64,000 nt of DNA from an uncultured Clostridia bacterium (GCA_944363505.1 CALVUD010000003.1:5783-69782); one strand, 5' to 3'; positions 1,147-45,229 are shown, counted from the first letter of the stretch. The notes: a model not told the origin generated them from the letters alone. Made by a program: numbers and translations.

Positions 1147-1169
1147 TTTTCTGCATATTTGCGTGTAAT
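1147..1169. repeat. Left copy of a 23-bp direct repeat flanking the IS (TTTTCTGCATATTTGCGTGTAAT)
   Basis: Identical 23-mer at 1147-1169 and 2332-2354, found by eye. Confidence 0.9.
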
Positions 1170-4402: not shown

Positions 4403-6390
4403 GATAGTCCCTCCTTTATATATTTGGGAACTGCCCATTCGACATCATCTTCCGTATATGCAATGTACAGTAATGACGATGCAAAATCCGACTTTTTATC
4501 TATTATTTTTTGAGTTAAATCATATATATCGGTATTTTCATCTAGTTCATCCTCATTTTTTATTCCCAACAAATTTTCCTTCTTGTGTTTTAATTGTGCC
4601 AAATTAACATTGATAAATGCATCTTCGAAACTTCTTGGATAATATCCCTCTTCTTCATATTGATAAAAAACATTTACAAAATCTGATATACTTGTATTTG
4701 CGTGATTTATGATATTATTTATCCATGCTGAACAGACGCTGCAACCGGGATTAAATTGGGGCGCATCATAGTAATACTTAATAGTTTCATTAGATGTAAA
4801 GCAAAGATTGGGATCTGTTACAGCACACGCTGGATAAGTAGTTTTTTTACCATCTTTTCTATACACTGTATCTATATCTGTAATTATCAGTGTCGGTATA
4901 TGAAGAAAATCGATAAAATACCTGAACGCTTTCGCATTGGCTCCTGCTTGAACAACTGTTATATTTTGTGCTGATAGCGGAATATACTGAGATTTATATG
5001 TCTTGTCGTTTTTCTCTTTTTCTTCTTCTTTTTTATTTTCCTCACCATCATATTGTTTGATAAAATAATCTAACAATATTCCTTCTGAGATACCTTCTAT
5101 AAATATCGCTTTATCCGCAAAAAACAATTCTGAAGACCGAACACTTAAATATTGTTTCAAGAAAGAAAACTCTTTTTGTTCGTCTTTATATTTTTTATTT
5201 AATTCCTTATGGAAATTTTTAATTTTGATATTATCGCCATTCTCACTATTCTTTAAAGCCATATATCTGATATTTTCAAAACTATGTTTAGACACCATGT
5301 GCGGAGAATGCGTAGATATTATAGTTTGCAAATTGGGTACGTCATTTAATATTTTCTCAATTTTTCTTGCAAAAATATATTGTATTTGCGGATGAGTATG
5401 TGCTTCCGGCTCCTCTATTAATAATAGTTTTATATCTTTATTGTTATTTTTGAAAGACGCTTTTTTAATTTCTATAGTTAAAAGCAAAAACAAAATATTC
5501 ATATGCCCCAAGCCGTTAAGATGCTCTGGCAAGCGTTTAGCCAGATCTCCATATACAACTTCTGAGGAATCATTGATTATTTCTTTTGCCTTCAAATTAG
5601 AGACAACTTTTAGATCTGTCATATTTAGAAATTCTTTCGCATTTTTAAGAAAATTTGCAAAAAAATCTTGATAACTATTATCCAACTGCCCATCCATGTC
5701 AGATATTAAATTATTGATATTTTCAAACTTGTCAGTAGGATTTTCAACTGTCTTATTGTAATATTCCGTTGTTAGTTTGGACAACACTTTTATCCCGGTT
5801 TTTTCTTCTGAACTTGCAACATTTCTTTTTGCATGAATTATTTCAAAATCAATTAATTTTTCTACATCCTTAAAGTCTTTTTCTATTAACTTATATCTGT
5901 TTTCTGTTTTCAAATCTTCTAAAGAATCAAAAGTAAAAACTCTACATTGTAAATATTGTTTTATATTATTCGCAATAAATTTTTCTTTTAGCATGCTTCC
6001 TCTAAATTTAATTGCATCTAATAATTTATCTTTTTTTATGGAACATTCAAACAATAAATTAATTGTTTTACAATCAGGATCAAGATCAAGTAAAAAGTCA
6101 GATATATTGCATAAATCATCGCTTTCTTTATACTCAATACTCAATATAAGCTGAATAGCCATTTTATTTACATCAGTATTTTCATTAATATCAAAAAGTT
6201 CATTTCTTAAACATATAGAAAAATCATTAAAATCAAAATCTCTTGTTTTTAAAAATTTTTCCAGTACAACCATAAATGATGTTTTTCCGGTATTGTTTCT
6301 ACCTAAAAGCAAACATACTTTTGTATCAAAATCCATTTCTGAATCTTGAAGTATCCTAAAATTTCTCACATTAATCTTTTTAATCTGCAT
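4384..6390 (-). CDS. gajA: OLD-family ATP-dependent endonuclease (ABC-type ATPase + TOPRIM), GajA-like (Gabija)
   Basis: Motifs seen: Walker A GRNNTGKTS, Walker B region LLLIEEPEAHTHPQ, and TOPRIM-like IFIEGISEG and LIITDIDTV. ATG at 6390 is preceded by AGGAGA. The track start at 6408 is a TTG. Confidence 0.75.
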   Translation of the reverse strand: MQIKKINVRNFRILQDSEMDFDTKVCLLLGRNNTGKTSFMVVLEKFLKTRDFDFNDFSICLRNELFDINENTDVNKMAIQLILSIEYKESDDLCNISDFLLDLDPDCKTINLLFECSIKKDKLLDAIKFRGSMLKEKFIANNIKQYLQCRVFTFDSLEDLKTENRYKLIEKDFKDVEKLIDFEIIHAKRNVASSEEKTGIKVLSKLTTEYYNKTVENPTDKFENINNLISDMDGQLDNSYQDFFANFLKNAKEFLNMTDLKVVSNLKAKEIINDSSEVVYGDLAKRLPEHLNGLGHMNILFLLLTIEIKKASFKNNNKDIKLLLIEEPEAHTHPQIQYIFARKIEKILNDVPNLQTIISTHSPHMVSKHSFENIRYMALKNSENGDNIKIKNFHKELNKKYKDEQKEFSFLKQYLSVRSSELFFADKAIFIEGISEGILLDYFIKQYDGEENKKEEEKEKNDKTYKSQYIPLSAQNITVVQAGANAKAFRYFIDFLHIPTLIITDIDTVYRKDGKKTTYPACAVTDPNLCFTSNETIKYYYDAPQFNPGCSVCSAWINNIINHANTSISDFVNVFYQYEEEGYYPRSFEDAFINVNLAQLKHKKENLLGIKNEDELDENTDIYDLTQKIIDKKSDFASSLLYIAYTEDDVEWAVPKYIKEGLSWLQKK

Positions 6391-6695
6391 TTTTTCTCCT
6401 ATTGTCAAACTAAATTATACTTTCATTTAGAAAACAGGTTAGTTTATATTGTAAAATTCTTTTGAATAAATAATATTTAATCCTAATTTTATTACCCCTG
6501 AACTCTAAAAATTATTTTCATTATAGCAAATTTTTTTATGCTTATCAATAATATGTGGTAAATTCACAGTATGTATATATTCCTAACGCACAAGATTAAT
6601 TTGCCAATAACTCACTTATACTTTGTAAAATGATAACAGTGTCAATAAACTATGTCTTCATCCATACCGCATTTATTCGACTTTGTGTAAATACG

Positions 6696-6790
6696 CTCCA
6701 CCAAACCGAGGATAAGGGCGCAGATTGCGCCCTTTTTTCATGTCTCGGACTTCGGTCATTTACGTTTTATAAACTCCCTCGCCTTCACTT
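6696..6790. repeat. Island boundary repeat, copy A (partial and more diverged)
   Basis: Begins CTCCACCAAACCGAG and contains GGGCGC-N5-GCGCCC-T6. It aligns with 12810-~12890 and 19525-~19605 at about 6 substitutions per 60 nt. Confidence 0.8.
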
Positions 6791-6835
6791 TTTCCATTGG
6801 CCGTTGCGGCCGAAATCTTTATCACTTTATAATTT

Positions 6836-7594
6836 TTATAGATCGTCCAATGCATCTTTAGCGTCTTCACACCCATTTTCGGCGGCTAAAGAATACCACT
6901 CGATAGCAGAAGCTATATTTTCATCAACACCCCAGCCAAATCTATAGCAATCTCCTAATCTAAACATGGCATTCGGATTGCCTAATTGGGCAGATCTCAT
7001 CCAATAAATATAAGCTTGTGTAAAGTTTTTTGGCGCACCATTACCAGAGAAATAGCAATCGCCAACTGAACATAAAGCTTGCATGTAATTTTCGCTAGCG
7101 GCTTGCATAAACCATTTAAAAGCAAGCTTTTTATCTTGATTTACGCCAACGCCGATGTTATATCTAATTCCTAGAGACCATTGCGCATCGGCATTTCCCT
7201 GTTCGGCAGACCTCTTAAACCACTTAAAAGCCTCGTTTTGATCTTTTTCTATAAGCTCTCCATTATCATAAACACATGCTAAAATATACTGTGCTTCAAC
7301 GTGGTCGTTGTTTGCCGCAAGTTTTAACCATTTAATCGCTTCTTGTATTTTGGTTTCATCATCTTCATATCAATAATAATTTGTTAACTCCCATTGGGTT
7401 TCGGCATCGCCATTTTCAGCTTTTTGTTTTAATTTTTCAAGCTTTTCTTGCGGCATATTTATTTTATCGTTTTCATAATATTCTTGTTCTGACAATTCTT
7501 CTAGAATTAAATCCACAGGGTAGCCACATTCAACGCAGAATTCTGCTTTATCTGAAATCATTTTGCCACATTCAGGGCACTTAATTAATGCCAT
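6836..7594 (-). pseudogene. Zinc-ribbon + Sel1-repeat protein interrupted by one in-frame TGA
   Basis: ORFs 7370-7594 ([26 protein letters not shown]) and 6836-7108 are in the same frame (759 nt in total). The frame is open between them except for TGA at 7370-7372. Sel1-like repeats run throughout (AxxWxxxAAxxG). Confidence 0.7.
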
Positions 7595-7615
7595 AATTTA
7601 TTCTCCTTATTTAGT

Positions 7616-10600
7616 TTATTTTATCGATATCATGTCGTCTTTTATCTCAACTTCTTTTGATATCAAAGCTAAAGCGGATTCTAGGCGATTATAAATAGCT
7701 TCTCCCATACGGCTAAATCCGAGTTGCTGAACTAATAGCCGAAACAAGCCACTTTTTTCAACTGAAATATTTTGTTTAAGAATTTCTTTCATGCCGAGAG
7801 AGAGTTCTTCAAGTGAAATATACTTTATCTCGCGGACAACAGTAGCGTTCTCATGGGGAATCCGAAGCATAGGAATTTCTTTTTCTTGCGAATACAAAAA
7901 TCCGTTCTTACGAGTAATTTTATAATCACTACAATTCCTCATTATATAATTAAACTCGTCACGCACAACGCTTGTGACTTTTTCTCTTCCGAAAAGAAAT
8001 GCGATTCGCTTCAAAAGCCATTCTTCCGACAGCGGCGATTCGAGTCCGACGATATCACAAATAACGCTTATTTTATTGTAGCTAAATTTTGAAGCAGTCT
8101 TGCGATCGTCAGCCATTACATATTTTGGAAATTCAAAATGCTTCTCTTCGGCTACTTCTTCAAAAGAAACATTCCATGATGGAGCTTCGTCTTTTTCGAG
8201 TTTTATATTTGCATTATTTACAGCTTGTTTCGCCGCTTCTAATAGCCGTTCTTTTTCTACACGTTTGTTTCTAAACCAATCGGTCGACCAAATGCGATAG
8301 AATTTCCAGCCCATCCTTTCCAATACTTCTTGACGAAGCCTATCTCTATCGCGAGCGCTTCTTGAAGAGTGATAGGCTGCGCCGTCACATTCAATGGCAA
8401 GTAAATAGTCGGAAGAGTTGGGGGTTTTTAATGCTAAATCTATCTTAAACGAAGAACAGCCGACCTGTGTATCAACGCTAAATCCATTTTCTCTTAGGAA
8501 TTCACAAACTTCCATCTCAAATTCAGAGTCATATTCTTCAAAAGGATTTACGGAAATGGAACGTTGCAATGCAATCTCACCGTTTTCTGCGTAATCCAAA
8601 TATTCCTTTAGTAATCTTGCCCCTTTAGATTGAGTTCTTGATACATCGATATCCGTATGGTGCATAGAAGAAACGATTTGAATATTAAATTTAGCACGAG
8701 TAACGGCAACATTCAATCTGCGCTCTCCGCCGTCTCGATTTAACGGACCAAAGTTAAGAAGCAACCGACCTTGCGTATCTTTGCCATAAGCAATACTAAA
8801 AATAATGGTATCTCTTTCGTCTCCTTGTACGGTTTCTAAATTTTTAACAAAAAATGGCTCGGCTTTATCCGTTTTGAAGAAAGCTTCTTTGGAAAGATCG
8901 AGTTGCCTGCGTTTCGCTATAAGTTTGTCAATTAAATTTTGTTGCGCAACACTAAAAGCTACAACCCCAAGGCTTCTTTCCGGATATTTTTCTATATTTT
9001 CAAAGACTAAATTGACAATTCTTTCAGCTTCTACGCGATTTGTTTTTGTTGTACGGTCAAAAATACCATCTACATAGAAATAATCAACCCCTATTCCTAC
9101 AAAATCATGTTTAGAGGAAGGGAATGTAACTAAAGTACTATCATAAAAATTCTTATTTGAGAACGATATAAGCGATTCATAACGGCTTCTATAATGCCAT
9201 TTTAAGCGCTTTTGCGGGAAAGCCGTTGTACAAATATCTAATATGGATTCAAAATCGGTAATATCTTCGTCTTCATCATCGTTATCATTCTGAGCGGATG
9301 AACTATTAAAGAAATTGCTTGGCGGCATTTGCTTTGAGTCACCAACAACTATCAGTTGATTGCCTCTGTATATGGCACCAATCGCATCTTGCGGAAAGAT
9401 CTGCGATGCCTCATCAAAAATTACCACATCAAACTTCATATCCGGGCTTAAGAATGTACTGACGCTAAGCGGTGACATTAAGAAACAAGGCTTTAAGGTT
9501 TGCGCGAGGTCTCCGATTTCTTCTAAAAGCAGCCTTATGCCTTTCTGCTTGCGCTTCTTTTCGCCTTCTCTTAACAATATTGCTTTGGCGCTACCTTGTG
9601 CGACCATATCTAAATTCGGTCTTAATGAAGACAGCTTTGCTTTAATCTTTGCTTTGTTTATCTCAAAATTAAGTTCGTCTTTGGTTTTAAAAAGTTTTAC
9701 CGTCTCATCGTGTGGAATTCGAGTCAGCGTCATTAAAATAGGTGATTCATGCAGTATTGCGTCAACCCATTGCATATAAAATGCTTTTTTGTACGCAGAT
9801 AAAAGGCTCTCTGCGTTTATCTTCCGATTAATTGCATAATCTATAAAATCTCTTAGTTCTAATTCGCTAAGTTTATTTAATAATTTGACGAACTCACACC
9901 AATTGTCCAGCTTATCAATGTTATCAATGCATCCTTGGTATTTCCTTGTTAACCAGTCTATGTCAGCATGCCGAACATCATACTTATTTATGTCGTACTT
10001 TGAAAGAACTCGCTTCTCTGATTCTTCGCCTTTGCCGAATGACTTTTCCAAGAAATCGGAAAACATTGCAAAATCCTTTTGTTGCGCAACAAATTCTTGA
10101 TTGCTTAAAGTGGCAAGAACGGCAAAATCGATGTCAGTAGAATGAATTTTATTGAGTGTATCGAGTTGATCAAGCAAAGCTTCAAAATTTGTCAGAATTC
10201 CATTATAAGCGGAGCCTATTTGTCCCTGGATTTTCTCTTCTAAAACAAAGAACTTACAAAGCTTTTGTTGATAATCACATAAAAGTTTCATCATAGAGAC
10301 GGCAACTTTATATTTTACTTTCTTGCCGCTTTTATTACAGAGTTTAAGTTCTTTTGCAATACGCCGATATTCGTTACTAAATAATCTAGCGAGGACACCT
10401 TTAAACTGTTTGGTCAACTTATTATGAAGAGTTTGTCCGCTGATTTTGAAGATATCTTCATCGAACATATCATTAATGATTTTCTTGTTGTTTAATATTT
10501 CTTTTGCCAAAGCTTGCATCGCTTTTAACGTCTTCACCGTGCTCGAGAGAGTGGATGAGTTAAGCAATGCCGGTGTTATATATTCACTTGTTTTTACCAG

Positions 10601-12268
10601 ATTAAAGAAGTCTCTTAACGCATATGCTTGCAGTATATTTTTAGCTGCGATAGAATATTTTTCATTAAGCGTAGCATTTAAATCTTTTATCTCGTTGCAA
10701 AGAATTACTGCGTCTTTTAAATCGAGTTTTAGCTGGGCGGTCGCTTGATATGAAGCATCGAGATCAACATATCCATACCAAACATTTTGATGGTAGTCAT
10801 AACCGACGGAAGGAATATATTCAGTATAACGTGTTAAAGCAATTTCTGCTTTTCTTATATATTCTTCTCCTTTGGTTTTGATTTTGTCGATAACAAATTC
10901 AATGTCGGGCGCTTTTCTGCAAGCGGAAATTTCTTCATAAATTTTATAAAGAGTCTTGTTTATTATTGGGCGAATTTTATGAAGTTCATAAGCGTATTCG
11001 TCAAGCTCTTTTTGCGTGCGAATCTTTTCATCTATTTCTTTTTGAGCGCGATCAGCCAAAGAGCTTTTTTGCGCTTGTAACGTATGGCATAAATCGGCTA
11101 TTACATCTTTTTTATTTGCTTTGTGGCTATGCAGTTCTAGACAAAACTCTTCCAGCCCTGTTTTTTTAATATTCTCATAAACGACGTTAAGCGCAGCTAA
11201 TTTTTCTGAAACAAAAAGAATTCTTTTGCCACATGCAAGACATTCGGCAATAATATTTGTGATTGTTTGGCTTTTGCCTGTTCCGGGCGGGCCTTGCAGT
11301 ACAAAGCTTTTCCCGCTTCGAGCCATTTCTATAGCTTCGGTCTGGCTTGAGTCCGCATCGACAACATTATATAGTTGAATGGGTGTATTATCGGCATTCC
11401 TACTATCTGCACTTTCTCCGATTGCGTAATCTATATTTCTTTCGCCGAGTAAAGAGCGAACGGACGTATTCTTCAATATCTTTGCGGCATTATCTTTCAA
11501 GTCCCTGTGCATATTAAGTTTTGAGAACGAGAAAATGCTGATTTTACATTCCTTCGTAAGCGTCCATTTAAGTTTTGAGATGCATCTTTGAACTTTTTCT
11601 AAATATTCATCAACATCTTCGTCATTATAAGTGGGTAATTCCAAACCATAATCATTTTTCAATTTGAAAGAAAATGTTGGATTAACGATAAAATCGCTAT
11701 CTGTTACTTTTATATAATAAGGGTCAATAGCCGAATCATTTTCTATGGAAATAGGCACAAGTAAAATCGGGGCACGCATTTTATATTGGGAATTTTTATC
11801 TTCAGTCCAATGAATAAAGCCAAACGCCATATACGCAATATTAACGCCGGTTTCTTCAATCGATGTTCTCGCTTTTTTCCCAATGTTGCGTAAAACTTTT
11901 ATCGGATTCACGAAGGAATTATAGATTAAGACCTGACCAACCTTCTTGAGGCGGCTTTCGTACATGTCTATATAATCTTCTTTAGAAATGCGCTTTTCGT
12001 CAGCACCATCTTGTTGCTCACCTTCAGATGTTTTGATATCTTCGATGGCTTCTATTACTTCATCATCTTCTTCATCGTCTAATTTAGGATCATAAACTTC
12101 AAACGTAGCTAAACGTTCTGTTTCGTAAAAAAGAGTTCCAAAATCCGGCGATACTATTTCCACCGTTCTCATTTTTGTGTCCCTAAAGTTTATAAGGTTA
12201 TTCCTTTTCCCTGTGTCAAGCAATAAATCAGCCCATTTATTTAACTTATCAATATCCATAATTCTCAA
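7616..12268 (-). CDS. Giant DUF4011 + Upf1-like SF1 helicase + Vsr/DUF559-like endonuclease + DUF3320-like tail; Hhe-like single-protein defence candidate
   Basis: Motifs seen:
- Walker A GPPGTGKS (11270-11293)
- VIFDEASQI
- VVGDSKQMPP
- TVQGDERDTIIFS
- LNVAVTRAK
- then LAIECDGAAYHSSRSARDRDRLRQEVLERMGW, typical of DUF559/Vsr-fold nucleases. Confidence 0.7.
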   Translation of the reverse strand: MRIMDIDKLNKWADLLLDTGKRNNLINFRDTKMRTVEIVSPDFGTLFYETERLATFEVYDPKLDDEEDDEVIEAIEDIKTSEGEQQDGADEKRISKEDYIDMYESRLKKVGQVLIYNSFVNPIKVLRNIGKKARTSIEETGVNIAYMAFGFIHWTEDKNSQYKMRAPILLVPISIENDSAIDPYYIKVTDSDFIVNPTFSFKLKNDYGLELPTYNDEDVDEYLEKVQRCISKLKWTLTKECKISIFSFSKLNMHRDLKDNAAKILKNTSVRSLLGERNIDYAIGESADSRNADNTPIQLYNVVDADSSQTEAIEMARSGKSFVLQGPPGTGKSQTITNIIAECLACGKRILFVSEKLAALNVVYENIKKTGLEEFCLELHSHKANKKDVIADLCHTLQAQKSSLADRAQKEIDEKIRTQKELDEYAYELHKIRPIINKTLYKIYEEISACRKAPDIEFVIDKIKTKGEEYIRKAEIALTRYTEYIPSVGYDYHQNVWYGYVDLDASYQATAQLKLDLKDAVILCNEIKDLNATLNEKYSIAAKNILQAYALRDFFNLVKTSEYITPALLNSSTLSSTVKTLKAMQALAKEILNNKKIINDMFDEDIFKISGQTLHNKLTKQFKGVLARLFSNEYRRIAKELKLCNKSGKKVKYKVAVSMMKLLCDYQQKLCKFFVLEEKIQGQIGSAYNGILTNFEALLDQLDTLNKIHSTDIDFAVLATLSNQEFVAQQKDFAMFSDFLEKSFGKGEESEKRVLSKYDINKYDVRHADIDWLTRKYQGCIDNIDKLDNWCEFVKLLNKLSELELRDFIDYAINRKINAESLLSAYKKAFYMQWVDAILHESPILMTLTRIPHDETVKLFKTKDELNFEINKAKIKAKLSSLRPNLDMVAQGSAKAILLREGEKKRKQKGIRLLLEEIGDLAQTLKPCFLMSPLSVSTFLSPDMKFDVVIFDEASQIFPQDAIGAIYRGNQLIVVGDSKQMPPSNFFNSSSAQNDNDDEDEDITDFESILDICTTAFPQKRLKWHYRSRYESLISFSNKNFYDSTLVTFPSSKHDFVGIGVDYFYVDGIFDRTTKTNRVEAERIVNLVFENIEKYPERSLGVVAFSVAQQNLIDKLIAKRRQLDLSKEAFFKTDKAEPFFVKNLETVQGDERDTIIFSIAYGKDTQGRLLLNFGPLNRDGGERRLNVAVTRAKFNIQIVSSMHHTDIDVSRTQSKGARLLKEYLDYAENGEIALQRSISVNPFEEYDSEFEMEVCEFLRENGFSVDTQVGCSSFKIDLALKTPNSSDYLLAIECDGAAYHSSRSARDRDRLRQEVLERMGWKFYRIWSTDWFRNKRVEKERLLEAAKQAVNNANIKLEKDEAPSWNVSFEEVAEEKHFEFPKYVMADDRKTASKFSYNKISVICDIVGLESPLSEEWLLKRIAFLFGREKVTSVVRDEFNYIMRNCSDYKITRKNGFLYSQEKEIPMLRIPHENATVVREIKYISLEELSLGMKEILKQNISVEKSGLFRLLVQQLGFSRMGEAIYNRLESALALISKEVEIKDDMISIK

Positions 12269-12353
12269 TCCTTTGTATTGTTCTGCAAACTATTTAAACA
12301 ATTCAGTCGTGTTTACTAAGCTTTTCTCCGTTGTTATTTCTCCGGCATCTCAT

Positions 12354-12572
12354 TTAATTTATAAGCAGCTCTTGTATTTGACAATCTAAAACCTTACATA
12401 TTTTCAGAAGAATATCCATATGGACGATTTCGTTTTTACCTAACTTCGCCATTGTGGTAGTGGTAATGCCCGCAGCCACACGTAAATCTTCTTTGCGAAT
12501 GTATCTATTAATTACAATTTTCCATAGTTTATTGTAATTTAGCGTCATCTCCAACTTTAAGATTAACTCCAA
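12354..12572 (-). CDS. Small XRE/Cro-type HTH regulator
   Basis: Contains LRVAAGITTTTMAKLGKNEIVHMDILLKICKVLDCQIQELL, a classic HTH_XRE pattern. The start is uncertain: TTG at 12572 or ATG at 12548. Confidence 0.65.
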   Translation of the reverse strand: MELILKLEMTLNYNKLWKIVINRYIRKEDLRVAAGITTTTMAKLGKNEIVHMDILLKICKVLDCQIQELLIN

Positions 12573-12809
12573 GTTTATAGCTGACTACATTATAGCATAT
12601 AAAAGATATGTTTCAAGAATTTCTCCATTCATTAGAAAAATTAGTTTTCTTGTATACTTTTACAAACCCATTGACCATTTGTCCATAAAAATGAGGTAAA
12701 TCTTTTTTAAAAAATTTCCAAATAGCAAATTTATTTGCAAAAATAAAAGAGTCCGTGGCAAAATAAAAATGCTTTTCTTCATGATATTATTCGATTTTCT
12801 ATAACAACA

Positions 12810-13004
12810 CTCCACCAAACCGAGAATAAGGGCGCGGATTGCGCCCTTTTTTCATGCCTCCGGCTTCGGTCATTTGCGTTTACCTCTCCTTCGCATTTTA
12901 ATCTCCGCACCCTGCAACCCTTCTGCTCGGGTTGGAGATAGCATTTTTATCCGCTTCCCCCACAAAAACCCCGGATCGAAAATCGGTTCGGGGTTTTCGT
13001 TTTA
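12810..13004. repeat. Island boundary repeat, copy B (full length)
   Basis: Colinear with 19525-19720 over about 195 bp with few substitutions. It starts with the same CTCCACCAAACCGAG and ends in a hairpin plus T-run when read on the minus strand. Confidence 0.9.
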
Positions 13005-13157
13005 TTCGATTATTATAAATTTGATTTGAATAAATGAAGCTAAAGGGCGCGGCTTGCCCCAAAAGTTAAGCAAAGCCCCTTTTCTATTTCAACCACACAC
13101 CACGGTGATAAATTCAAAATAGTATATTTGCACTTTTAATTATTAACAGAAAATTAC

Positions 13158-13186
13158 TTGCTATTGTTCGAGGTTTAGAATATAAT
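13158..13186 (+). promoter_or_regulatory. Sigma-70-type promoter for the R-M operon
   Basis: TTGCTA (13158-13163), a 17-nt spacer, then TATAAT (13181-13186), 42 nt upstream of the ATG at 13228. Confidence 0.55.
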
Positions 13187-13189
13187 TTA

Positions 13190-13205
13190 TATAGTATATA
13201 CTATA
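13190..13205. promoter_or_regulatory. Perfect 16-bp palindrome TATAGTATATACTATA (operator candidate)
   Basis: Self-complementary 16-mer located between the -10 box and the RBS of the HTH-fused methylase gene. Confidence 0.5.
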
Positions 13206-13227
13206 CTATATATCTAACGGAGAGACT

Positions 13228-14295
13228 ATGTTAAGTTATATTTCGGCAAAAGAAGCGGCGGAGAAATGGAATATTTCACAAAGGCGAGTTGCCATACTTT
13301 GTTCAGAGGAACGTATTAAAGGCGCTATGATGGTCGGCAATATGTGGATTATTCCTTCAAACGCTGAAAAGCCTGTGGATAAGCGTACTGTTCGTTATGA
13401 AAAAACTCATAAAGTTGAACTAAAACCTTTTGTAAAGTGGGTTGGCGGAAAAGGTCAGTTGGTTGATGAAATTGAAAAGATGTTTCCTTTCGACGGCGAA
13501 AATGCCTTGACAAAATACGCTGAACCTATGGTCGGCGGCGGTGCATTGTTTTTCAACGTACTTTCGAAATATACTTTCGAAGAACTTTATATTAGCGATA
13601 TTAACTCAGAGTTGATCAACGCTTACACCGCTATCAAGCAAAATGTTGAAGCATTGATTGCGCGGCTTAATGAGATGCAGATGACGTTTTTACCTCTCGA
13701 CGATAACGGCAGAAAATATTACTATTATAATATCCGTGATAAATTCAATTCATTGGAATTGAGCGAACGCTCTTCAATAGAAAAAGCAGCTTATTTCATT
13801 TTTTTGAATAAGACTTGTTTTAACGGATTATATCGCGTTAACCGGAAGGGGCAATTCAATGTTCCCATGGGTTCTTATAAAAATCCTACTATTTGCGATA
13901 AGGAAAATCTCCGCAACATTCATATTGCGCTACAAAACGTTACAATTGTCTGCGGCGACTATACTCTGTCAAAGTCATTCATTGACAATAATACTTTTGT
14001 CTATTTAGATCCGCCTTACCGTCCTATTTCAGAAACTTCAATGTTTACATCATATAATGTCGACGCATTCGACGACAACGAGCAGATACGGCTTGCAAAA
14101 TTTATCGATGAGTTAAACGCGGCAGGAGCGAAAATCGTTTTGAGTAATTCCGATCCGAAAAATATCAATCCGGAAGACAATTTCTTTGATGATTTGTATA
14201 AATCATACAGGATCCACCGAGTTTCGGCAACACGAATGATAAACAGCAATGCGGAAAAACGCGGCAAGATAAACGAATTGTTAATTTGCAATTAA
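13228..14295 (+). CDS. Dam-family N6-adenine DNA methyltransferase (DpnM-like) with an N-terminal HTH domain
   Basis: VKWVGGKGQL and DPPY motifs (MethyltransfD12 type). The first ~50 aa (ISAKEAAEKWNISQRRVAILCSEERIKGA) form an HTH. Confidence 0.8.
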   Translation: MLSYISAKEAAEKWNISQRRVAILCSEERIKGAMMVGNMWIIPSNAEKPVDKRTVRYEKTHKVELKPFVKWVGGKGQLVDEIEKMFPFDGENALTKYAEPMVGGGALFFNVLSKYTFEELYISDINSELINAYTAIKQNVEALIARLNEMQMTFLPLDDNGRKYYYYNIRDKFNSLELSERSSIEKAAYFIFLNKTCFNGLYRVNRKGQFNVPMGSYKNPTICDKENLRNIHIALQNVTIVCGDYTLSKSFIDNNTFVYLDPPYRPISETSMFTSYNVDAFDDNEQIRLAKFIDELNAAGAKIVLSNSDPKNINPEDNFFDDLYKSYRIHRVSATRMINSNAEKRGKINELLICN

Positions 14296-14306
14296 AGAGG
14301 AAACAT

Positions 14307-15146
14307 ATGAATATTCTTGAATTAACCAAAGAAGAAACAAATAAATATATAGACGAACTATACTCGTGCTTTCCAACTGGGCGAGAGTTTGAAATTTTTT
14401 TAAACTCATTTTTAAGTGCTTTAGGCTTTGAAGAAGTAGTTACAACTCAATATGTGAGTGATAAAGGAATTGATTTAACTTGTGTAAAAACAGGCCTTGA
14501 TGTAAACGGAACTGATACTATAAACTATTATGTTCAAGCAAAAAGATATTCTCGCAATAATAAAGTTCAATCTAAAGAGATCAGAGATTTAAAAGGTACC
14601 ACCAAACGGGATAAGAACGGCAAGGTTTTAAACAGTAATTATATAAATGTATTTATCACAACTTCAACATTTACTAATTCTGCTTTAGCAGAAGCGAGCG
14701 ACAATCCCAACATGCCAGTTATCACTATAGATGGTACTCAACTCATTCAATATTGCATTGAAAAAGGCATTGGTTTTAATTATAAACCCATTTTTTCCAA
14801 AACAGATATTATTGCATTGATACAAAGCGCGCCAAACAACGATATTAGTATTGAACCAAATTCATCATACTTGGTCGAAAGAGAAATAACTAAAAATGAT
14901 ATAAGGGCAAGGATTCTGATTATCCCTCAAGTTATAAAAAACGAATTATCAAAAAATGAAGAAAAATTTAATGTTGTTTTTAATGGATTTGAAAAACAGC
15001 TTAATATCGATAAATCCCGGCGATATTTTGGCGGCATAACAGATTTTTATAAAAAATTTGGGTTGCTAACTAATGATGGGATATTTATAAACAAAAAAGC
15101 AAAATGGCGAATAGACGGAAACAAGATTATTGTTGATTTAGTGTAG
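14307..15146 (+). CDS. Mrr-like PD-(D/E)xK restriction endonuclease domain protein with an unassigned C-terminal domain
   Basis: FEIFLNSFLSALGFEEV...DKGIDLTCV...YYVQAKRY matches the Mrr_cat pattern (D...QxK). ATG at 14307 follows AAGAGG. Confidence 0.6.
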   Translation: MNILELTKEETNKYIDELYSCFPTGREFEIFLNSFLSALGFEEVVTTQYVSDKGIDLTCVKTGLDVNGTDTINYYVQAKRYSRNNKVQSKEIRDLKGTTKRDKNGKVLNSNYINVFITTSTFTNSALAEASDNPNMPVITIDGTQLIQYCIEKGIGFNYKPIFSKTDIIALIQSAPNNDISIEPNSSYLVEREITKNDIRARILIIPQVIKNELSKNEEKFNVVFNGFEKQLNIDKSRRYFGGITDFYKKFGLLTNDGIFINKKAKWRIDGNKIIVDLV

Positions 15147-15157
15147 GAGTTAAATAA

Positions 15158-16021
15158 ATGAAAAGAGATTTTAATGAATGGCTTAAAACTTTCAAATCGA
15201 GCATTTGCGATTATGGCTATTATGTCGATTTCGAAAAGGTTTACGGTAATGTAGAAAGCATAAAAGTTGAATTGAATATTCTTAATTCTCTTATAGGCTC
15301 TAAAAATATTGAGGATGATTTTAGAAAGCTAATCCAAGAATACCCGAAAATTTTAAAATGCATTCCTATGTTGCTTGCGGTCAGAGGGCGTGAAATTTAT
15401 GCTATTGACGGAGACGGAGAATACTTATTTAATTTTTACAAGCCAAATTACACTGCAAACGAATACATAATGTTCATGCATAAAACGGGCTTATTTTACT
15501 TAATTTCAAATCATATTATAAATAACCTCGTAGATTATGTAACGGGCGTAGAAGTCGGACTCGATAGTAACGGTCGTAAAAATCGCGGCGGTCATTTAAT
15601 GGAAAACCTTGTAGAGGATTATCTTATAAAAGCCGGATTAGTTAAAGGCGAAACTTATTTTAAGGAAATGAAACTGTCCGCGATCGAAAGAAAATGGAAT
15701 ATCGATTTGTCGGGTATTTCAAATCAAGGCAAAGCAGAAAAGAGATTTGATTTTGTTGTTAAGAAAGGCAAAACAATATATGCAATAGAAACAAATTTTT
15801 ATACGGGTGGAGGCTCAAAACTTAACGAAACCGCGCGCAGTTATAAAACTATCGCTTTAGAAGCAAAAGAAATTGATGGTTTTGCCTTCGTGTGGTTTAC
15901 GGACGGAGCTGACGGTTGGAAGTCTGCTCGCCATAATCTTGAAGAAACGTTTGACGTTTTAGATAATATGTATTGTATTTCCGATATGGAAAACGGTATA
16001 GTAAAGGAACTTTTCAAATAA
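15158..16021 (+). CDS. DpnII/MboI-family type II restriction endonuclease (GATC class)
   Basis: The N-terminus FNEWLKTF...YYVDFEKVYGNVESIKVELNILNSLIGSKNIEDDF closely follows the R.DpnII N-terminal pattern as I remember it. Confidence 0.75.
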   Translation: MKRDFNEWLKTFKSSICDYGYYVDFEKVYGNVESIKVELNILNSLIGSKNIEDDFRKLIQEYPKILKCIPMLLAVRGREIYAIDGDGEYLFNFYKPNYTANEYIMFMHKTGLFYLISNHIINNLVDYVTGVEVGLDSNGRKNRGGHLMENLVEDYLIKAGLVKGETYFKEMKLSAIERKWNIDLSGISNQGKAEKRFDFVVKKGKTIYAIETNFYTGGGSKLNETARSYKTIALEAKEIDGFAFVWFTDGADGWKSARHNLEETFDVLDNMYCISDMENGIVKELFK

Positions 16022-16022
16022 T

Positions 16023-16766
16023 ATGGCAAAGAAAAATATACCGTTACAGCCCGAAAATTTCGAACTCGAAACAAATACCGTTTGGGCGTTCCCCGATCGC
16101 GGTAAATGGGCTACACACGACGCGAAATATCGCGGAAACTGGTCGCCGTATATTCCGAGAAACGTAATTCTGCGTTATTCGAAAGAGAACGACACTGTTT
16201 TGGATCAGTTCGTTGGTGGCGGCACTACCGCGGTTGAGGCAAAATTAACTAATAGGAATTTTATCGGTGTCGATATTAATCCGAACGCACTTGAAATAAC
16301 AAAAAGCAAATTGAATTTCGAGTGTGAATTTAATCCGACGATAAATATTATGCAAGGCGATGCGCGTAATCTTTCGACTATTGCCGATAATTCGATAGAC
16401 CTTATTTGCACGCATCCGCCTTATGCGGATATTATTCATTACAGCGAAAATATTGACGGCGATATGTCACTTATGTCGATGAAAGATTTTTTGTTTGAAA
16501 TCGGCAAAGTCGCGGGCGAATGTTATCGGGTATTGAAGAAAGATAAGTTTTGTGCTATTCTTATGGGAGACACACGGAAAAAAGGTATGGTTCAGCCGCT
16601 TGCTTTTGATACTATGCGTGTCTTTGAGCTCGCCGGTTTCAAAACGAAAGAAATAATAATCAAGGAACAGCACAATTGCAAAGCAACTGGATATTGGAAA
16701 ACAAACAGCATAAAGTTTAATTTCCTTTTGCTCGCCCACGAGTATTTGTTCGTGTTAAAAAAATAA
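16023..16766 (+). CDS. Amino (N6-A/N4-C) DNA methyltransferase with motif order FxGxG before PPY
   Basis: VLDQFVGGGTTAVEA is followed by CTHPPYADII. The gene starts 1 nt after the endonuclease stop. Confidence 0.7.
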   Translation: MAKKNIPLQPENFELETNTVWAFPDRGKWATHDAKYRGNWSPYIPRNVILRYSKENDTVLDQFVGGGTTAVEAKLTNRNFIGVDINPNALEITKSKLNFECEFNPTINIMQGDARNLSTIADNSIDLICTHPPYADIIHYSENIDGDMSLMSMKDFLFEIGKVAGECYRVLKKDKFCAILMGDTRKKGMVQPLAFDTMRVFELAGFKTKEIIIKEQHNCKATGYWKTNSIKFNFLLLAHEYLFVLKK

Positions 16767-16790
16767 CTTGAATTCTAGCCGAGGTAGGAT

Positions 16791-17690
16791 ATGGATGAGT
16801 TTATATATGATGACAATAAAATAAAACTATACAACGAGGATTGTTTAAAAATATTCCCCCTGATAGATAGTGAATCTATTGATTTAATAATAACATCACC
16901 GCCTTATTGCATGGGAAAAGAATATGAGAATACATCTGATGATATAAATTCCTTTCTTTCCCTGAATAAAAAAGTAATTTATGAGGCCCAAAGAGTTTTA
17001 AAAAAAGGGGGGAATCTTTGCTGGCAGATTGGTTTTCATGTAAAAGATTCTGTCATCGTTCCTCTGGATTGCTTAATTTATCAAATTGTTGAAGAAATAA
17101 ATAAAACGCTATCTGATGATTGTAAATTGTACTTGCACAATAGAATAGTATGGTCATTTGGTCATGGATTAAATGCTGAAAAAAGGCTAAGTGGTCGCTA
17201 TGAGACAATTATGTGGTACACAAAAGGTAAAGAGTATTTGTTTAATTTAGATGCTATTAGAGTACCGCAAAAATATCCAGGGAAAAAGTATTCAAAAGGG
17301 AAAAAAGTTGGACAATATAGTGGGAACCCTTTAGGGAAAAACCCATCTGATGTATGGGATATTCCAAATGTAAAAGCTAATCATATAGAGAAAACAGCAC
17401 ATCCGTGTCAATTCCCGATTGCAATTCCGCAAAGATTAATTAAGGCCCTATCTAGACAGGGCGACATAATCATGGATCCTTTTTTAGGAAGTGGAACAAC
17501 AGCCGTTGCGTGTATAATGGAGAAAAGAAATTTCATAGGGTGTGAATTAAAAAAAGATTATATTTCTATCGCAAAGCAACGCATTACAGATGCTATACAA
17601 GGAAAGGTTAAGTGTCGTCCAGATGTACCAGTCATAGAGCCCGACAAAAATCAAAAAGTTGCACAAAAGCCGGAGGAATTCAAATGGTAA
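16791..17690 (+). CDS. Beta-class amino DNA methyltransferase (N6-A or N4-C)
   Basis: ITSPPYCMGKEY lies near the N-terminus and DPFLGSGTTAVAC near the C-terminus. Confidence 0.8.
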   Translation: MDEFIYDDNKIKLYNEDCLKIFPLIDSESIDLIITSPPYCMGKEYENTSDDINSFLSLNKKVIYEAQRVLKKGGNLCWQIGFHVKDSVIVPLDCLIYQIVEEINKTLSDDCKLYLHNRIVWSFGHGLNAEKRLSGRYETIMWYTKGKEYLFNLDAIRVPQKYPGKKYSKGKKVGQYSGNPLGKNPSDVWDIPNVKANHIEKTAHPCQFPIAIPQRLIKALSRQGDIIMDPFLGSGTTAVACIMEKRNFIGCELKKDYISIAKQRITDAIQGKVKCRPDVPVIEPDKNQKVAQKPEEFKW

Positions 17691-19495
17691 AGAAACTAAT
17701 GAAGAATAAAAAAAAGAGATTATCAAAAGAGCAAATCGTTGAGAATAAAAACCGTGCCAGTTTTAAAAAACAAATAAAAGATATTTTTATACTTTCGGGC
17801 TTTAATCCTTTGAATGTTCAAGGTTTTCAGTTTGAACTGGGGAATCGCCCCAATGAACTAGATCACTGCTTTATTTACGAGAACATTATAATAATTTGCG
17901 AAGATACGATTAAGTTTCTGAAGAAAAAAGATTTAGCAGCGACTAACGGAGAATCCTTTAATCGAAATCACAAATTAGAAAAAAATGAATCTGCTCATAT
18001 AATTCTAACCAATAAAGAACGTTTTATTGGTATCTTGAAACAGAAATTTCCTGATGTTGAACAAATAAAAATTTATAATCCAAAGGAGTTCAGGATTTTT
18101 TATTTGTACTTTGAATACGGGAAGCAACATATTAGTTCTGAAGATGAAAATAGGTACAGTTATTTAAAATTTATAGATTATCCGACGCTTAATTACTTGT
18201 CGATTATGTCAAAAAGTTTAAAGGCGTCATTTAAGTATGAGATTTTTAGATTTCTAAATCTTTCCAGAACGGACATCGGAAAACCAGACCCGTTTGGGAA
18301 TAATATTAAGCCGATCATTTCTTCGATTATATATCCAGATTCTGTTACGGGATTTAATAATGGTATCAGGATGGTTTCCTTTATGATGAGACCTTCCGAT
18401 TTGATTGAGAATAGTTTTGTGCTTCGTAAGGATGGATGGGAACAAAATGTTGATTTATATCAAAGATTAATAACCCCCAAAAGGATAAAATCTATTAGAG
18501 ATTTTGTTGTAAATAACAAAACTACTTTTTTGAATAATATTATTGTAACATTACCGCCCAATGTAGAATTTTACAAGAAAGAAAACGGCAAGAGATTGCC
18601 CGTTAATATTGATGACATTACAAATTATAGTAACAATGTTGAGATATGCATTCCTGTAGATTTTAACTCAATGGCTATTATTGATGGTCAACATAGAGTT
18701 TATGCGTATTATCAAGATAACGAGAATAATATTTCGGAACAAGTTATTGCTAAGTTAAGAAATGAGTTAAATTTGCTTGTGACTGGAATTATCTATCCAA
18801 ACAACGATAAATACGATGACCCTTTGGAAAGAAGAAAATTTGAGAGTAATTTATTTGTCTCAATTAATAAAAACGCAAAACCTGTTGATGCTGATACATT
18901 GATTCAAGTGCAAGCAATTATGAATCCCACTTCTGGTGAAGCAATATCAAGAAAAGTTATAGAACGTTTAAATAAGGAAGAACCCTTTACAAATATGTTT
19001 CAGTTATCTAAAGTTGAAACAGCACCAATTAAAATCGCATCAATTATTCAATACGCACTATCGAGTCTATTAGTAGCAAAAAATAACGATAACTCGCTAT
19101 ATCGTTACTGGTTGGTAAAAAACAAGTTGAATGATGATTATGTATTGAGAAGCAGTGAAGACATTAAAGACTATATAAATTATTGCGTAAAATATCTAAA
19201 AGAATACTTTAAAGCGATAAAGAGTAAATTTAACAGTTTCTGGAATAAAGATTCGAAGCTATTAATGGTTATTTCATTGAATGCTTTTATAATTGCATTT
19301 CGAGAGACATTAAAAATGTGTAATGGGCCTCAAAAGTATAATTTTTATTCTAGTGTATTTAAAGATTGGGATTTTAGTTTTGAGAACTCTAAAGATAAAA
19401 ACAAACAATTCCCATATGCAGGTGCGCAGTATAGTAAGTTTGCAAAAAATGAAATAATCCCATTGTTTGTTCGAAATTATAATACGACTAAATAG
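17684..19495 (+). CDS. DGQHR-domain (DndB/DpdB-like, ParB fold) protein with unassigned N- and C-terminal regions
   Basis: IIDGQHRVYAYY is encoded at 18683-18697 and QRLITPKRIKSIRDFV lies upstream of it. ATG at 17684 follows GGAGGA (17672-17677) and overlaps the methylase stop by 7 nt. Confidence 0.7.
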   Translation: MVKKLMKNKKKRLSKEQIVENKNRASFKKQIKDIFILSGFNPLNVQGFQFELGNRPNELDHCFIYENIIIICEDTIKFLKKKDLAATNGESFNRNHKLEKNESAHIILTNKERFIGILKQKFPDVEQIKIYNPKEFRIFYLYFEYGKQHISSEDENRYSYLKFIDYPTLNYLSIMSKSLKASFKYEIFRFLNLSRTDIGKPDPFGNNIKPIISSIIYPDSVTGFNNGIRMVSFMMRPSDLIENSFVLRKDGWEQNVDLYQRLITPKRIKSIRDFVVNNKTTFLNNIIVTLPPNVEFYKKENGKRLPVNIDDITNYSNNVEICIPVDFNSMAIIDGQHRVYAYYQDNENNISEQVIAKLRNELNLLVTGIIYPNNDKYDDPLERRKFESNLFVSINKNAKPVDADTLIQVQAIMNPTSGEAISRKVIERLNKEEPFTNMFQLSKVETAPIKIASIIQYALSSLLVAKNNDNSLYRYWLVKNKLNDDYVLRSSEDIKDYINYCVKYLKEYFKAIKSKFNSFWNKDSKLLMVISLNAFIIAFRETLKMCNGPQKYNFYSSVFKDWDFSFENSKDKNKQFPYAGAQYSKFAKNEIIPLFVRNYNTTK

Positions 19496-19524
19496 TAATT
19501 AAAATTCGTTTTACATTGTCACTT

Positions 19525-19720
19525 CTCCACCAAACCGAGAATACGGGCGCGGATTGCGCCCTTTTTTCATGCCTCCGGCTTCGGTCATTTGCGTTTACCT
19601 CTCCTTCGCATTTTAATCTCCGCACCCTGCAACCCTTCTGCTCGGGTCGGAGATAGCATTTTTATCCGCTACCCCCACAAAAACCCAGGATCGAAAAAAT
19701 CGGTGGGTGTTTTTCTTTTG
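19525..19720. repeat. Island boundary repeat, copy C, directly abutting the backbone
   Basis: See copy B. It ends 2-3 nt before the stop codon (19723-19725) of the GC-rich hydrolase gene. Confidence 0.9.
19545..19567 (+). terminator. Rho-independent terminator-like hairpin after the R-M/DGQHR operon
   Basis: GGGCGC-GGATT-GCGCCC followed by TTTTTT, 50 nt after the stop at 19495. The same hairpin occurs in copies A and B. Confidence 0.55.
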
Positions 19721-19722
19721 TA

Positions 19723-20808
19723 TTATTTAAGTGCTTTTACGTAATTCACGGTTTGGGAGCGTGTAACGGCGGATCGGACAGATCTGTCGCGCTTTTTCTG
19801 AGCGAACATCCAATCGCACCATTTTTCTTTCATGAGAAAACGCGAGGCGAGAAAGTGTCCGTATTTTTCGGTGCGGGTATATCGGAAATCCGCATTAAGT
19901 TCGGTAAGCTTTCGGGCGGCGAGATCGTCGTGCGCTATAGATACTATGCCGTCGTTCGCGGCGTGAGCCATCCATATCGGAACCTCTTTAAAGGGCTCGC
20001 AGTCGCAATTTCCGCTTTCCAAAAATTCAAACGTGGTTCCCATAAGAGGAACGGCACAGGCAAATTTTTCGGGCGCCGAACTAAGCGCGCTCCATACGCA
20101 GCAGCCTCCGAGAGATACGCCAAGAACATATATCCGACTTCGGTCGGCGTGCGTTTCTTCCGCAACGCGGTCAGCAAGTGCGACGACGGAATTTATATAG
20201 CGCGTCATTTCCGTTTTAGTTTCGTCGAAACTCCTGCCTTCGTTTATCGAGCGGTACGGCTGAGGAACGAGGATATTCGCGTTTTTACGAGCGAGGACCG
20301 GGAGAATGAGCGAGGTATCGAACAACGTCTTTATGTTGTCGTTTCCCGTGGCGCCCGCGCTCGGAAAAATTATTGCTAACGGCATATTCGCTTTGCCTGA
20401 CCTATTCAGGCGGTACGGATATGCTGTAAGATTTTCTTTATCGATATACAGACGGGATCCGAACCCGAACAGCTTCGCTCCGTATCCGATACTTTCGGTG
20501 TGTTCGGTCTCGGCTAACTTCCTTTCCCGCCACGCGCATTGTTTGTCGATAGCCGAAGTACGACGGCATTGCGCGCGAAAAAGCGAACGGACCGATCTTT
20601 TTGTTTTCCCTATGATCACCGGCTCGCCTGAAATATTATAGCGGTAGAGCGTTCCGTCGGATGCGATTATGACATTATTTACTAAAGCGTCGTCGCCTTC
20701 GGGCAAAGTTTTTCGGGAAACGAGAGTTAATCTCGTTTTTTCGTCTTTTTTAACGAATTTTTCGTCATCCCGGATACTTTCGTTTGAGGTCAGAACCCTA
20801 TAGAACAT
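19723..20808 (-). CDS. Alpha/beta hydrolase (prolyl oligopeptidase / esterase-like)
   Basis: 361-aa ORF with the nucleophile elbow GVSLGG. Confidence 0.6.
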   Translation of the reverse strand: MFYRVLTSNESIRDDEKFVKKDEKTRLTLVSRKTLPEGDDALVNNVIIASDGTLYRYNISGEPVIIGKTKRSVRSLFRAQCRRTSAIDKQCAWRERKLAETEHTESIGYGAKLFGFGSRLYIDKENLTAYPYRLNRSGKANMPLAIIFPSAGATGNDNIKTLFDTSLILPVLARKNANILVPQPYRSINEGRSFDETKTEMTRYINSVVALADRVAEETHADRSRIYVLGVSLGGCCVWSALSSAPEKFACAVPLMGTTFEFLESGNCDCEPFKEVPIWMAHAANDGIVSIAHDDLAARKLTELNADFRYTRTEKYGHFLASRFLMKEKWCDWMFAQKKRDRSVRSAVTRSQTVNYVKALK

Positions 20809-25391: not shown

Positions 25392-25685
25392 TCAATTTTC
25401 GCGAACTTTAAATGCGGGCATTTCTTTGCCGCGGAATTCGGCGTCGAGAATACCCAGCTGCATTTTAATTATACGCCGCATTTCGATAGCGGGTGCAAGA
25501 CAGTATTTTTCAAAAAGCTCTCTGTCCGCGTCTGCGGCGCTGTTCCAGTGCGGGAAATACAGCTTGACAAACGCCGTAGCGATACGTTTTACCGCAGCGG
25601 TGTCCCTTGTATCCGAGCCCTCGGGAACACACAATAATTCGTTCACTACGCCGCCTGCGGTCATATCGTTGCGCAATTCGTGCAT
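25392..25685 (-). CDS. 97-codon ORF that continues the FtsK-like gene in another frame (frameshifted tail or overlapping small gene)
   Basis: Protein-like sequence starts at MHELRNDMTAGGVVNELL (ATG 25685) and overlaps the upstream stop (25661-25663) by 25 nt. The longer track ORF's N-terminus is Arg/Gln-rich noise. Confidence 0.45.
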   Translation of the reverse strand: MHELRNDMTAGGVVNELLCVPEGSDTRDTAAVKRIATAFVKLYFPHWNSAADADRELFEKYCLAPAIEMRRIIKMQLGILDAEFRGKEMPAFKVREN

Positions 25686-45213: not shown

Positions 45214-45229
45214 TGTTTCACGTTAAACA
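45214..45229. other. parS-like site 1: TGTTTCACGTTAAACA
   Basis: One mismatch to the Firmicutes parS consensus TGTTNCACGTGAAACA. Confidence 0.55.

Follow-up and report, generated by a model that had tools for sequence, protein, structure and literature searches.

Tandem accretion and cis-mobilizable elements (CIMEs) have been reviewed for the 3' ends of tRNA and other genes, with the integrative and conjugative element (ICE) example ICESt1/ICESt3-CIME in Streptococcus thermophilus and the tRNA-Lys composites in Streptococcus agalactiae (PMC5704250). Here we analyse a 64-kb stretch of metagenomic DNA (the window) in which three direct copies of a unit of about 200 nt lie at the borders of blocks of anti-phage defence genes. 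These copies are probably attachment (att)-type junctions that arose as genomic islets accreted in tandem at the 3' end of a tRNA-Val(GAC) gene. Aligned contigs establish which site is used, where exactly the junction falls and that occupancy varies from strain to strain; that a tyrosine integrase was the agent, which one, and in what order the events took place we infer. Tandem accretion at a tRNA gene is already well known, and this locus is a fresh example of it, with defence islets that encode no integrase.

Comparison with described systems

As in ICE/CIME accretion, several elements at this locus share a single att site at a gene's 3' end, where they form a head-to-tail row, internal att copies are kept, occupancy varies between strains, and some elements keep their att sites without genes for integration or transfer. 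[quoted passage not shown] Williams, in 2002, reportedly classified the sublocations of integration within tRNA and tmRNA genes, among them the extreme 3' end. Classical tRNA/tmRNA islands with tyrosine integrases share with our locus the insertion at the 3' end, a short core over the acceptor/CCA end, flanking direct repeats and a guanine-plus-cytosine (GC) content below that of the backbone; unlike them, the islets described here encode no integrase beside the tRNA, and the tRNA body is not next to the stack in the available scaffold.

Defence cassettes have recently been reported in chromosomal and mobile integrons, and integron arrays resemble this locus in presenting compact, recombinase-less defence blocks in a row, with hairpin-containing sites between them and a Xer-related recombinase nearby. 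In contrast to such arrays, the recombinase here is not IntI, a tRNA 3' end with its terminator takes the place of attC, each block has its own promoter-like sites, and both the polarity and the spacing to the recombinase are wrong. Pipolins, too, have Xer-like recombinases. PMC11551731 presents pipolins as platforms for defence islands at tRNA genes, and our locus is like them in having direct-repeat-flanked integrative elements with exchangeable defence systems; it is unlike them in that no piPolB is among the genes annotated here and in that the Xer-like enzyme appears tied to a local inversion switch. As to Xer/dif modules (integrative mobile elements exploiting Xer, IMEX, and pdif), inspection of the aligned junctions, by eye only, gave no 11-6-11 palindrome (28-bp dif-like site) around the core TCCACCA.

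Sequence data and host

The window is part of the European Nucleotide Archive (ENA) metagenome scaffold ONAT22-1_SAMEA6814635 scaffold_23 (313.6 kb), and window coordinates equal record coordinates minus 5761. We compared the contents of the site contig by contig across a set of related assembled contigs (numbered with the prefix L, and including Logan contigs); alignment A3 lines up L041, window copies A, B and C, L003, L023 and L025 at the junction. The gene content of the blocks was assigned with Pfam and PADLOC, and promoter-like sites come from a consensus scan only. Homologues of a recombinase from this locus are present in metagenome-assembled genomes labelled Candidatus Scatousia, Christensenellaceae and uncultured Clostridia, which places the host in an uncultured lineage of gut Clostridia. 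Its backbone GC is ~54%; within the locus, cargo GC is 27-38% against 49-57% in backbone genes.

Three copies of one unit

The 15-mer CTCCACCAAACCGAG occurs on the plus strand at exactly 6696, 12810 and 19525 and nowhere else in the window, a count of three against 0.07 expected and one that 0/100 shuffles attained. The three direct copies that a sequence-only reading of this DNA had placed at these positions are thus borne out. We call them A, B and C; with the sequence adjoining them they are:

6696 to 6793, plus strand: copy A, core CTCCACCA followed by a truncated unit whose sole hairpin is the putative tRNA-Val terminator (6714-6734); left end of the Hhe-like islet
12810 to 13004, plus strand: copy B, core CTCCACCA followed by the full unit, with the putative tRNA terminator (12828-12848) and a hydrolase-type terminator (12965-12997); left end of the restriction-modification (R-M) islet
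13005 to 13075, plus strand: additional copy, partial and decayed, within which the vestigial hairpin AAGGGCGCGGCTTGCCCC lies at 13043-13060; its assignment by homology is ambiguous, the sequence being AT-rich
19525 to 19720, plus strand: copy C, core CTCCACCA followed by a unit that abuts the hydrolase stop codon; attR-like junction with the backbone
19723 to 20808, minus strand: alpha/beta-hydrolase, first backbone gene (Pfam)

Copies B and C are colinear, without gaps and with 93% identity, over 194 nt (12789-12982 vs 19504-19697; 94% over 200 nt by BLAST), which agrees with the ~195 bp claimed for them, and copy A has only ~97 nt in common with them (6697-6793). The hairpin GGGCGC-N5-GCGCCC-T6 is, as had been stated, found in all three copies; it scores as terminator-like in each (6714-6734, 12828-12848 and 19545-19561), with a computed fold of -13 to -15 kcal/mol. 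Copy B has a strong terminal hairpin (-22.9 kcal/mol, z -4.1), and the one in copy C has decayed to a large extent (-8.2 kcal/mol, z +0.4), so that of the compensatory change read into this pair (CCCC/GGGG vs CCCA/TGGG) one compensatory pair, C-G to A-U, stands, in a hairpin that has otherwise decayed in C. The sharp left boundary ascribed to the copies also holds in part: the start of CTCCACCAAACCGAG is kept in all of them, but a further 23 nt to the left are weakly conserved (6673-6695, 12787-12809 and 19502-19524). Copy C does end at the stop codon of the first GC-rich backbone gene, the hydrolase, and GC climbs from ~0.35 to ~0.5 where the two meet. The vestigial hairpin AAGGGCGCGGCTTGCCCC is present where it had been reported, and its region moves with the R-M block, being found also at ~7461-7480 of L041. 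When the scaffold was extended leftward no fourth full copy was found; there is just the decayed partial copy at ~13002-13075. Logan contigs from one run (L002, L018, L042, L044) break inside each unit, the expected behaviour of an assembly because the units are repeats; L044 equals window 6740-12859, and its ends fall inside units A and B. A small minus-strand open reading frame of the unit (MTEAGGMKKGRNPRPYSRFGG...) was judged spurious, as it is built on the terminator hairpin and would run antisense into the tRNA in L041.

The unit as the region between tRNA-Val(GAC) and hydrolase genes

Contig L041 holds an intact tRNA-Val(GAC) at 7153-7228 that runs straight into the unit, and the same contig carries the window's Dam methylase. 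Homology to window copy B begins at L041 7222, within the last 7 nt (TCCACCA) of the tRNA, and continues at 97.6% identity through the whole unit and on into the Dam/DpnII genes. Because this homology starts inside the tRNA end, CTCCACCA can be identified as the 3' acceptor strand plus CCA (last 8 nt) of tRNA-Val(GAC), the genuine end of which reads GTCCACCA in L041. Copy A is 89.7% identical to L041 7222-7318, directly downstream of the tRNA. Judged from its sequence, the first hairpin of the unit is the tRNA-Val terminator, and the last one shows homology to the terminator of the hydrolase gene in relatives (82% over 55 nt). With the tRNA terminator first and the hydrolase terminator last, the unit therefore corresponds to the intergenic region between convergent tRNA-Val(GAC) and hydrolase genes. 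The earlier proposals that the repeat equals the backbone intergenic region beside the hydrolase gene and that a single att site is involved both stand on these comparisons; the tRNA end at that site had gone unrecognised. A tmRNA 3' end was also considered as the site, prompted by L034, where a homologue of the recombinase has a tmRNA gene nearby, and was superseded by the exact match to tRNA-Val(GAC); Rfam searches of the window and the loci returned tRNA and tmRNA only.

On the hydrolase side, the last 26 codons of the source gene (that of the window) are unrelated to the 7-codon tail of its relatives (89-97% protein identity), and nucleotide homology to those relatives breaks off abruptly within the gene, at 19804, so that copy C is perhaps not pristine backbone. 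More distant hydrolase homologues have a different synteny and were uninformative.

Junctions at a seven-base core

TCCACC(A) is invariant across alignment A3. To the left of it stands either a true tRNA (L041, L023) or the AT-rich arm of an element (window A, B and C; L003; L025), and to the right either the unit (L041, the window copies, L003) or an unrelated AT-rich islet of 27% GC, here called the 189-aa islet (L023, L025). The motif ATTCG lies exactly 16 nt before CTCCACCA in arms A, B and C and in those of L003 and L025. The arms of the window are:

6673 to 6695, plus strand: arm A, right end of the leftmost (Gabija) block, TTATTCGACTTTGTGTAAATACG
12787 to 12809, plus strand: arm B, right end of islet 2, TTATTCGATTTTCTATAACAACA
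19502 to 19524, plus strand: arm C, right end of islet 3, AAATTCGTTTTACATTGTCACTT

and the left and right sides are joined as follows:

tRNA with unit: L041
arm with unit: window copies A, B and C, and L003
tRNA with 189-aa islet: L023, and also L024 and L026
arm with 189-aa islet: L025

Since all four combinations of left and right occur at one core, site-specific exchange at this 7-bp core is indicated, and homologous recombination is hard to fit because L025 and L023 have nothing in common to the left of it. At least seven unrelated downstream sequences, all of them opening with a terminator-like hairpin, meet the Gabija-side arm at one and the same nucleotide, and across these (at least seven) contexts arm A remains constant beside the promoter and genes of Gabija. 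The elements are bounded by direct repeats that include the tRNA 3' end (CTCCACCA plus downstream sequence), beginning at 6696, 12810 and 19525. The arm's likeness to the T-loop of the tRNA or to the hydrolase-proximal spacer was weak or not significant, and was not used.

What fills the site differs among relatives:

source, hydrolase 100%: three blocks
L023 and L024, hydrolase 97% identical to the source: tRNA-Val(GAC), then the 189-aa islet only
L026, hydrolase 89% identical: tRNA-Val(GAC), then the 189-aa islet only
L025, hydrolase 89% identical: element arm, then the same 189-aa islet
L041, hydrolase gene not reached, the contig ending in the R-M block: tRNA-Val(GAC), then the R-M block

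L023 and L025 thus differ by an insertion at the same base. A comparison with relatives, which the sequence-only reading had proposed as a check, shows a site that is differently filled between strains with a junction that is always TCCACCA, and the serial site-specific insertion at one att site suggested there agrees with the junctions of L041, L023, L025 and L026 at the 3' end of tRNA-Val(GAC).

Proposed course of accretion

The empty site would have consisted of tRNA-Val(GAC), its terminator hairpin, a spacer of ~100 nt, the hydrolase terminator and the convergent hydrolase gene, the unit being ~200 nt of this arrangement. An incoming element would open on its left with the tRNA-terminator hairpin, copying all or part of the unit, carry self-promoted defence cargo in its middle (the promoters being predicted) and close on its right with the conserved arm ATTCG-N16-CTCCACCA. 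Strand exchange would fall within the 7-bp TCCACCA, the last tRNA bases including CCA, so that each insertion would leave one further copy of core and unit. From left to right the stack would then read: the resistance-like and Gabija block with arm A; copy A, the Hhe-like islet and arm B; copy B, the R-M/DGQHR islet and arm C; and copy C followed by the hydrolase.

Arms and core flank both islets, neither islet has integration or transfer genes, and the site is occupied independently in different strains. Pfam and PADLOC find no recombinase domain in islet 2 (6.8-12.6 kb) or islet 3 (13.2-19.5 kb), only defence genes and a helix-turn-helix (HTH) regulator. With no recombinase of their own, these two blocks between the copies match the published definition of CIMEs retained in tandem accretions, and they would rely on an integrase acting in trans or supplied by a neighbour.

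Several observations weigh against accretion at the tRNA end. No integrase of matching specificity was found in the islets or beside them, and the only tyrosine recombinase nearby is Xer-like and sits beside an invertible segment of its own, with inverted repeats unlike the att junction. A truly empty site (tRNA-unit-hydrolase) was found in none of the contigs, and no circular or excised form was seen in the assembled contigs, which break inside the repeats. The body of tRNA-Val(GAC) is absent from the window, and none is known from the 5.7 kb of scaffold sequence on the left, on which ARAGORN was not run; the stack as a whole reaches leftward beyond the scaffold, so that its left end has never been seen. 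Finally, only 7-8 nt of the repeat lie inside the tRNA and up to ~195 nt lie downstream, more than a core-site mechanism requires. The long repeat calls for an added assumption, either that attP arms captured the native intergenic region or that homologous recombination contributed. 'Gene capture' has been reported for accretion-mobilization, and we liken it to the former.

A Xer-like recombinase beside an invertible segment

A tyrosine recombinase of 292 aa is encoded ~4.8 kb to the left of the window start on the scaffold. The leftward extension that the sequence-only reading had recommended thus yields a recombinase, though no fourth full copy, and the enzyme is probably not the integrase. 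Its best matches are XerC and XerD, both below their cutoffs; against TIGR02249 it scores 101 bits where the cutoff is 265, and the C-terminal 70 residues alone match. Directly upstream of its gene a 2.44-kb segment is inverted between L060 (1180-3620) and L063 (224-2666), contigs that are otherwise identical (99.8%). The segment, the equivalent position of which lies just left of the scaffold_23 start and ~5.7 kb left of the window, is bounded by inverted repeats of ~30 nt (TTACATTAACTAGGAATTATTGGGGG) unlike the att junction, and its inversion brings either the gene for a STALD-domain protein or a pair of genes (178 aa and 128 aa) next to the fixed recombinase-proximal region. It has the appearance of a switch for phase variation, perhaps of a defence gene, and the Xer-like recombinase is probably the invertase for this phase variation and not the integrase of the stack. 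The invertible segment also accounts for the end of scaffold_23, and of many other assemblies, 90-165 nt upstream of the recombinase gene. A core gene or an island integrase were considered as roles for the recombinase and rejected, as it abuts the invertible segment in L060 and L063.

The leftmost block, which reaches leftward beyond the scaffold, holds a tyrosine recombinase; the inverted repeats next to its gene are unlike the att site. In L041, L023 and L024, ~4 kb of genes of backbone composition (DUF386, FolD, phosphoribosyltransferase and alpha/beta hydrolase) stand between recombinase and insertion site; the FolD block is absent from the window.

Beyond the invertible segment, at 480-800 of L060, we observed four iteron-like repeats (...CTCACTTATTAGCCACGAGAATGGCAAAAGT...) ~60 nt apart, which may be a replication or partition site and hint that the leftmost block belongs to a larger mobile element. 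In L041 a tRNA-Val(CAC) lies ~440 nt upstream of the recombinase; the last 13 nt of this tRNA and its terminator are duplicated as a 59-nt direct repeat (L041 1637-1695 and 1847-1900) around a GC-rich element of 150 nt, and a similar GC-rich element containing CTGATGAG is present beside the junction at L017 1-90. The tRNA-Val(CAC) repeat has the look of a further att scar of this kind.

Alternative explanations

Pure homologous recombination would make the ~200-nt unit a homology anchor by which blocks are added, swapped or duplicated between strains, in a RecA-dependent or homology-facilitated manner. Repeats of ~195 nt at 93% identity, far beyond what a core site needs, are what such a process would use, and it accommodates the failure to find a dedicated integrase, the end of homology to relatives at 19804 inside the hydrolase 3' end, which resembles an endpoint of homologous recombination, and the other boundaries of the array, which are illegitimate or mediated by insertion sequences (ISs; GajB remnant in L060, IS remnant in L008). 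We nevertheless regard it as unlikely, because the arm-islet and tRNA-islet junctions of L025 and L023 fall at the same 7-bp core with neither the unit nor left flanking homology, the Gabija arm meets seven unrelated sequences at the exact same base, and the spacing ATTCG-N16-CTCCACCA is fixed in unrelated elements. Still harder to sustain is a chance placement between islands of a dispersed intergenic repeat, whether of repetitive extragenic palindromic (REP) or miniature inverted-repeat transposable element (MITE) type or a common terminator module. The unit is indeed hairpin-rich and non-coding, and the sites of some contigs are extended imperfect palindromes; yet all three window copies lie in this island, with none in the other low-GC region or the backbone, and among the fetched loci the unit is found solely downstream of tRNA-Val(GAC) or at island junctions. 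The sequence-only reading had itself named a genome-wide dispersed repeat as the finding that would overturn it, and within the sequence examined no such repeat appeared: the 64-kb window has no other copy, and the unit is without a match in plasmid, phage and IMG/VR collections, two pattern scans of IMG/VR giving one chance match and zero matches. A scan of metagenomes for the arm gave 10 matches, nine of them chance-like (three being near-identical copies of one soil sequence and two of another) and only L046 an apparently genuine island junction. We give this explanation hardly any credence.

An integron-like platform would have the Xer-like recombinase insert promoter-bearing, integrase-less cassettes at an attC-like site with the arms CTCCACCAAA...TTTGGTGGAG around the terminator hairpin. 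Xer-like recombinases are the closest relatives of IntI, the 292-aa enzyme ends the array in 9/9 source-like contigs that reach its position, and the cassettes are without integrases; moreover, the sites of L006, L017, L020 and L012 are extended imperfect palindromes, and G|TTTGGT at the junction is similar to GTTRRRY, the R' box of integrons. A tRNA 3' end and its terminator, however, fully account for the CCACCA motif and the hairpin, and the enzyme itself speaks against the idea through its sub-cutoff, C-terminal-only match to TIGR02249, its position flanking a 2.44-kb invertible segment with 30-nt inverted repeats of another kind, and the ~4 kb of backbone-composition genes that part it from the site in L041, L023 and L024. 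Site polarity is toward the recombinase gene and not away from it, other boundaries of the array are without such a site, and the cassettes have promoter-like sites of their own. The integron/attC interpretation was dropped once the IntI test had failed, no attC-like repeats were found between other genes and the tRNA explained the motif; we consider it rather improbable. Accretion at the tRNA-Val(GAC) 3' end remains our preferred reading.

Cargo and neighbouring regions

The three functional blocks named by the sequence-only reading are recovered by Pfam and PADLOC, namely GajA/GajB, the ZnR-Sel1, Hhe-like and HTH genes, and R-M/DGQHR. The leftmost block is larger than the islets and carries resistance-like genes as well as Gabija. 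Pfam and PADLOC assignments and the promoter-like sites, of which every block has a strong one to itself, are, in order along the window:

1169 to 2328, minus strand: IS element with rve-family transposase (Pfam), between GajB and the SnoaL gene
2387 to 4402, minus strand: GajB, distal cargo of the leftmost block (Pfam, PADLOC)
4384 to 6390, minus strand: GajA, distal cargo of the leftmost block (Pfam, PADLOC)
6548 to 6520: Gabija promoter-like site, score 11/12
6836 to 12554, minus strand: islet 2 cargo overall, between copy A and arm B
6836 to 7108, minus strand: Sel1, islet 2 (Pfam, PADLOC)
7370 to 7594, minus strand: zinc ribbon, islet 2 (Pfam, PADLOC)
7616 to 12259, minus strand: PDC-S37/Hhe-like DUF4011-helicase-nuclease of 1547 aa, islet 2 (Pfam, PADLOC)
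12354 to 12554, minus strand: HTH regulator, islet 2 (Pfam, PADLOC)
12616 to 12589, minus strand: strong promoter-like site of islet 2, score 11/12
13158 to 13186: promoter-like site of islet 3, score 10/12
13228 to 19495, plus strand: islet 3 cargo, comprising a Dam-like methyltransferase, an Mrr-like nuclease, a DpnII restriction endonuclease, two N6/N4 methyltransferases and a DndB/DpdB-like DGQHR protein

A version of the R-M islet without the Mrr gene directly adjoins tRNA-Val(GAC) in L041. The IS element is missing at this point in L003, L005 and L012, and a 26-nt stretch occurs on both sides of it in the window; L008 retains just a 96-nt remnant of the IS beside backbone genes, which suggests IS-mediated rearrangement of the array. 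What had been taken for a right-hand 'cassette boundary' of Gabija (...AAAACGT|) proved to be an IS insertion point. At 4965-5420 of L003, between transketolase genes and an A-like unit upstream of Gabija, a repeat of ~150 nt is present in three tandem copies that are 85-90% identical.

Two further regions of the window deserve mention. Directly upstream of dnaA (42968-44443, minus strand) lies a low-GC (0.35) stretch of ~5.6 kb (44444-50000) with no open reading frame of at least 140 aa, the longest being ~108 aa; no genes were called in the stretch upstream of dnaA in the related contigs L066 and L067 (97.5% identical) either. It gave no Rfam match even at E 0.1 and has no DnaA-box cluster, and since the cumulative GC skew has its minimum there we take it for the origin region, the gene-free stretch being unusually long. 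A second variable region lies between trkA and grpB at window ~25400-29100 (L001 1675-5417), where the source has an FtsK/SpoIIIE-like gene of 1157 aa and a 90-aa BrxL fragment, and L023 has Band_7, Snf7-like, AAA and full-length BrxL genes instead.

Biological meaning

The value of these findings is descriptive rather than conceptual, the phenomenon being a textbook one. A bolder and decidedly doubtful extension would be that, in Christensenellales-like gut Clostridia, integrase-less and self-promoted defence islets have a portable attachment module made up of the tRNA-Val 3' end and a terminator hairpin, and are shuffled in trans by the resident Xer-like recombinase, which would also run the adjacent inversion switch; if true, this would amount to a cassette economy like that of integrons, but with a tRNA site and an enzyme other than IntI at its base. 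The locus raises a tractable question as to the enzyme that moves elements without an integrase of their own, and it provides a searchable junction signature for further islets, ATTCG-N16-CTCCACCA followed by a terminator hairpin. It also shows how a defence island is assembled in uncultured gut Clostridia, with Gabija, Hhe-like and R-M/DGQHR blocks stacked at one tRNA-Val site and the stacked blocks differing between closely related strains.

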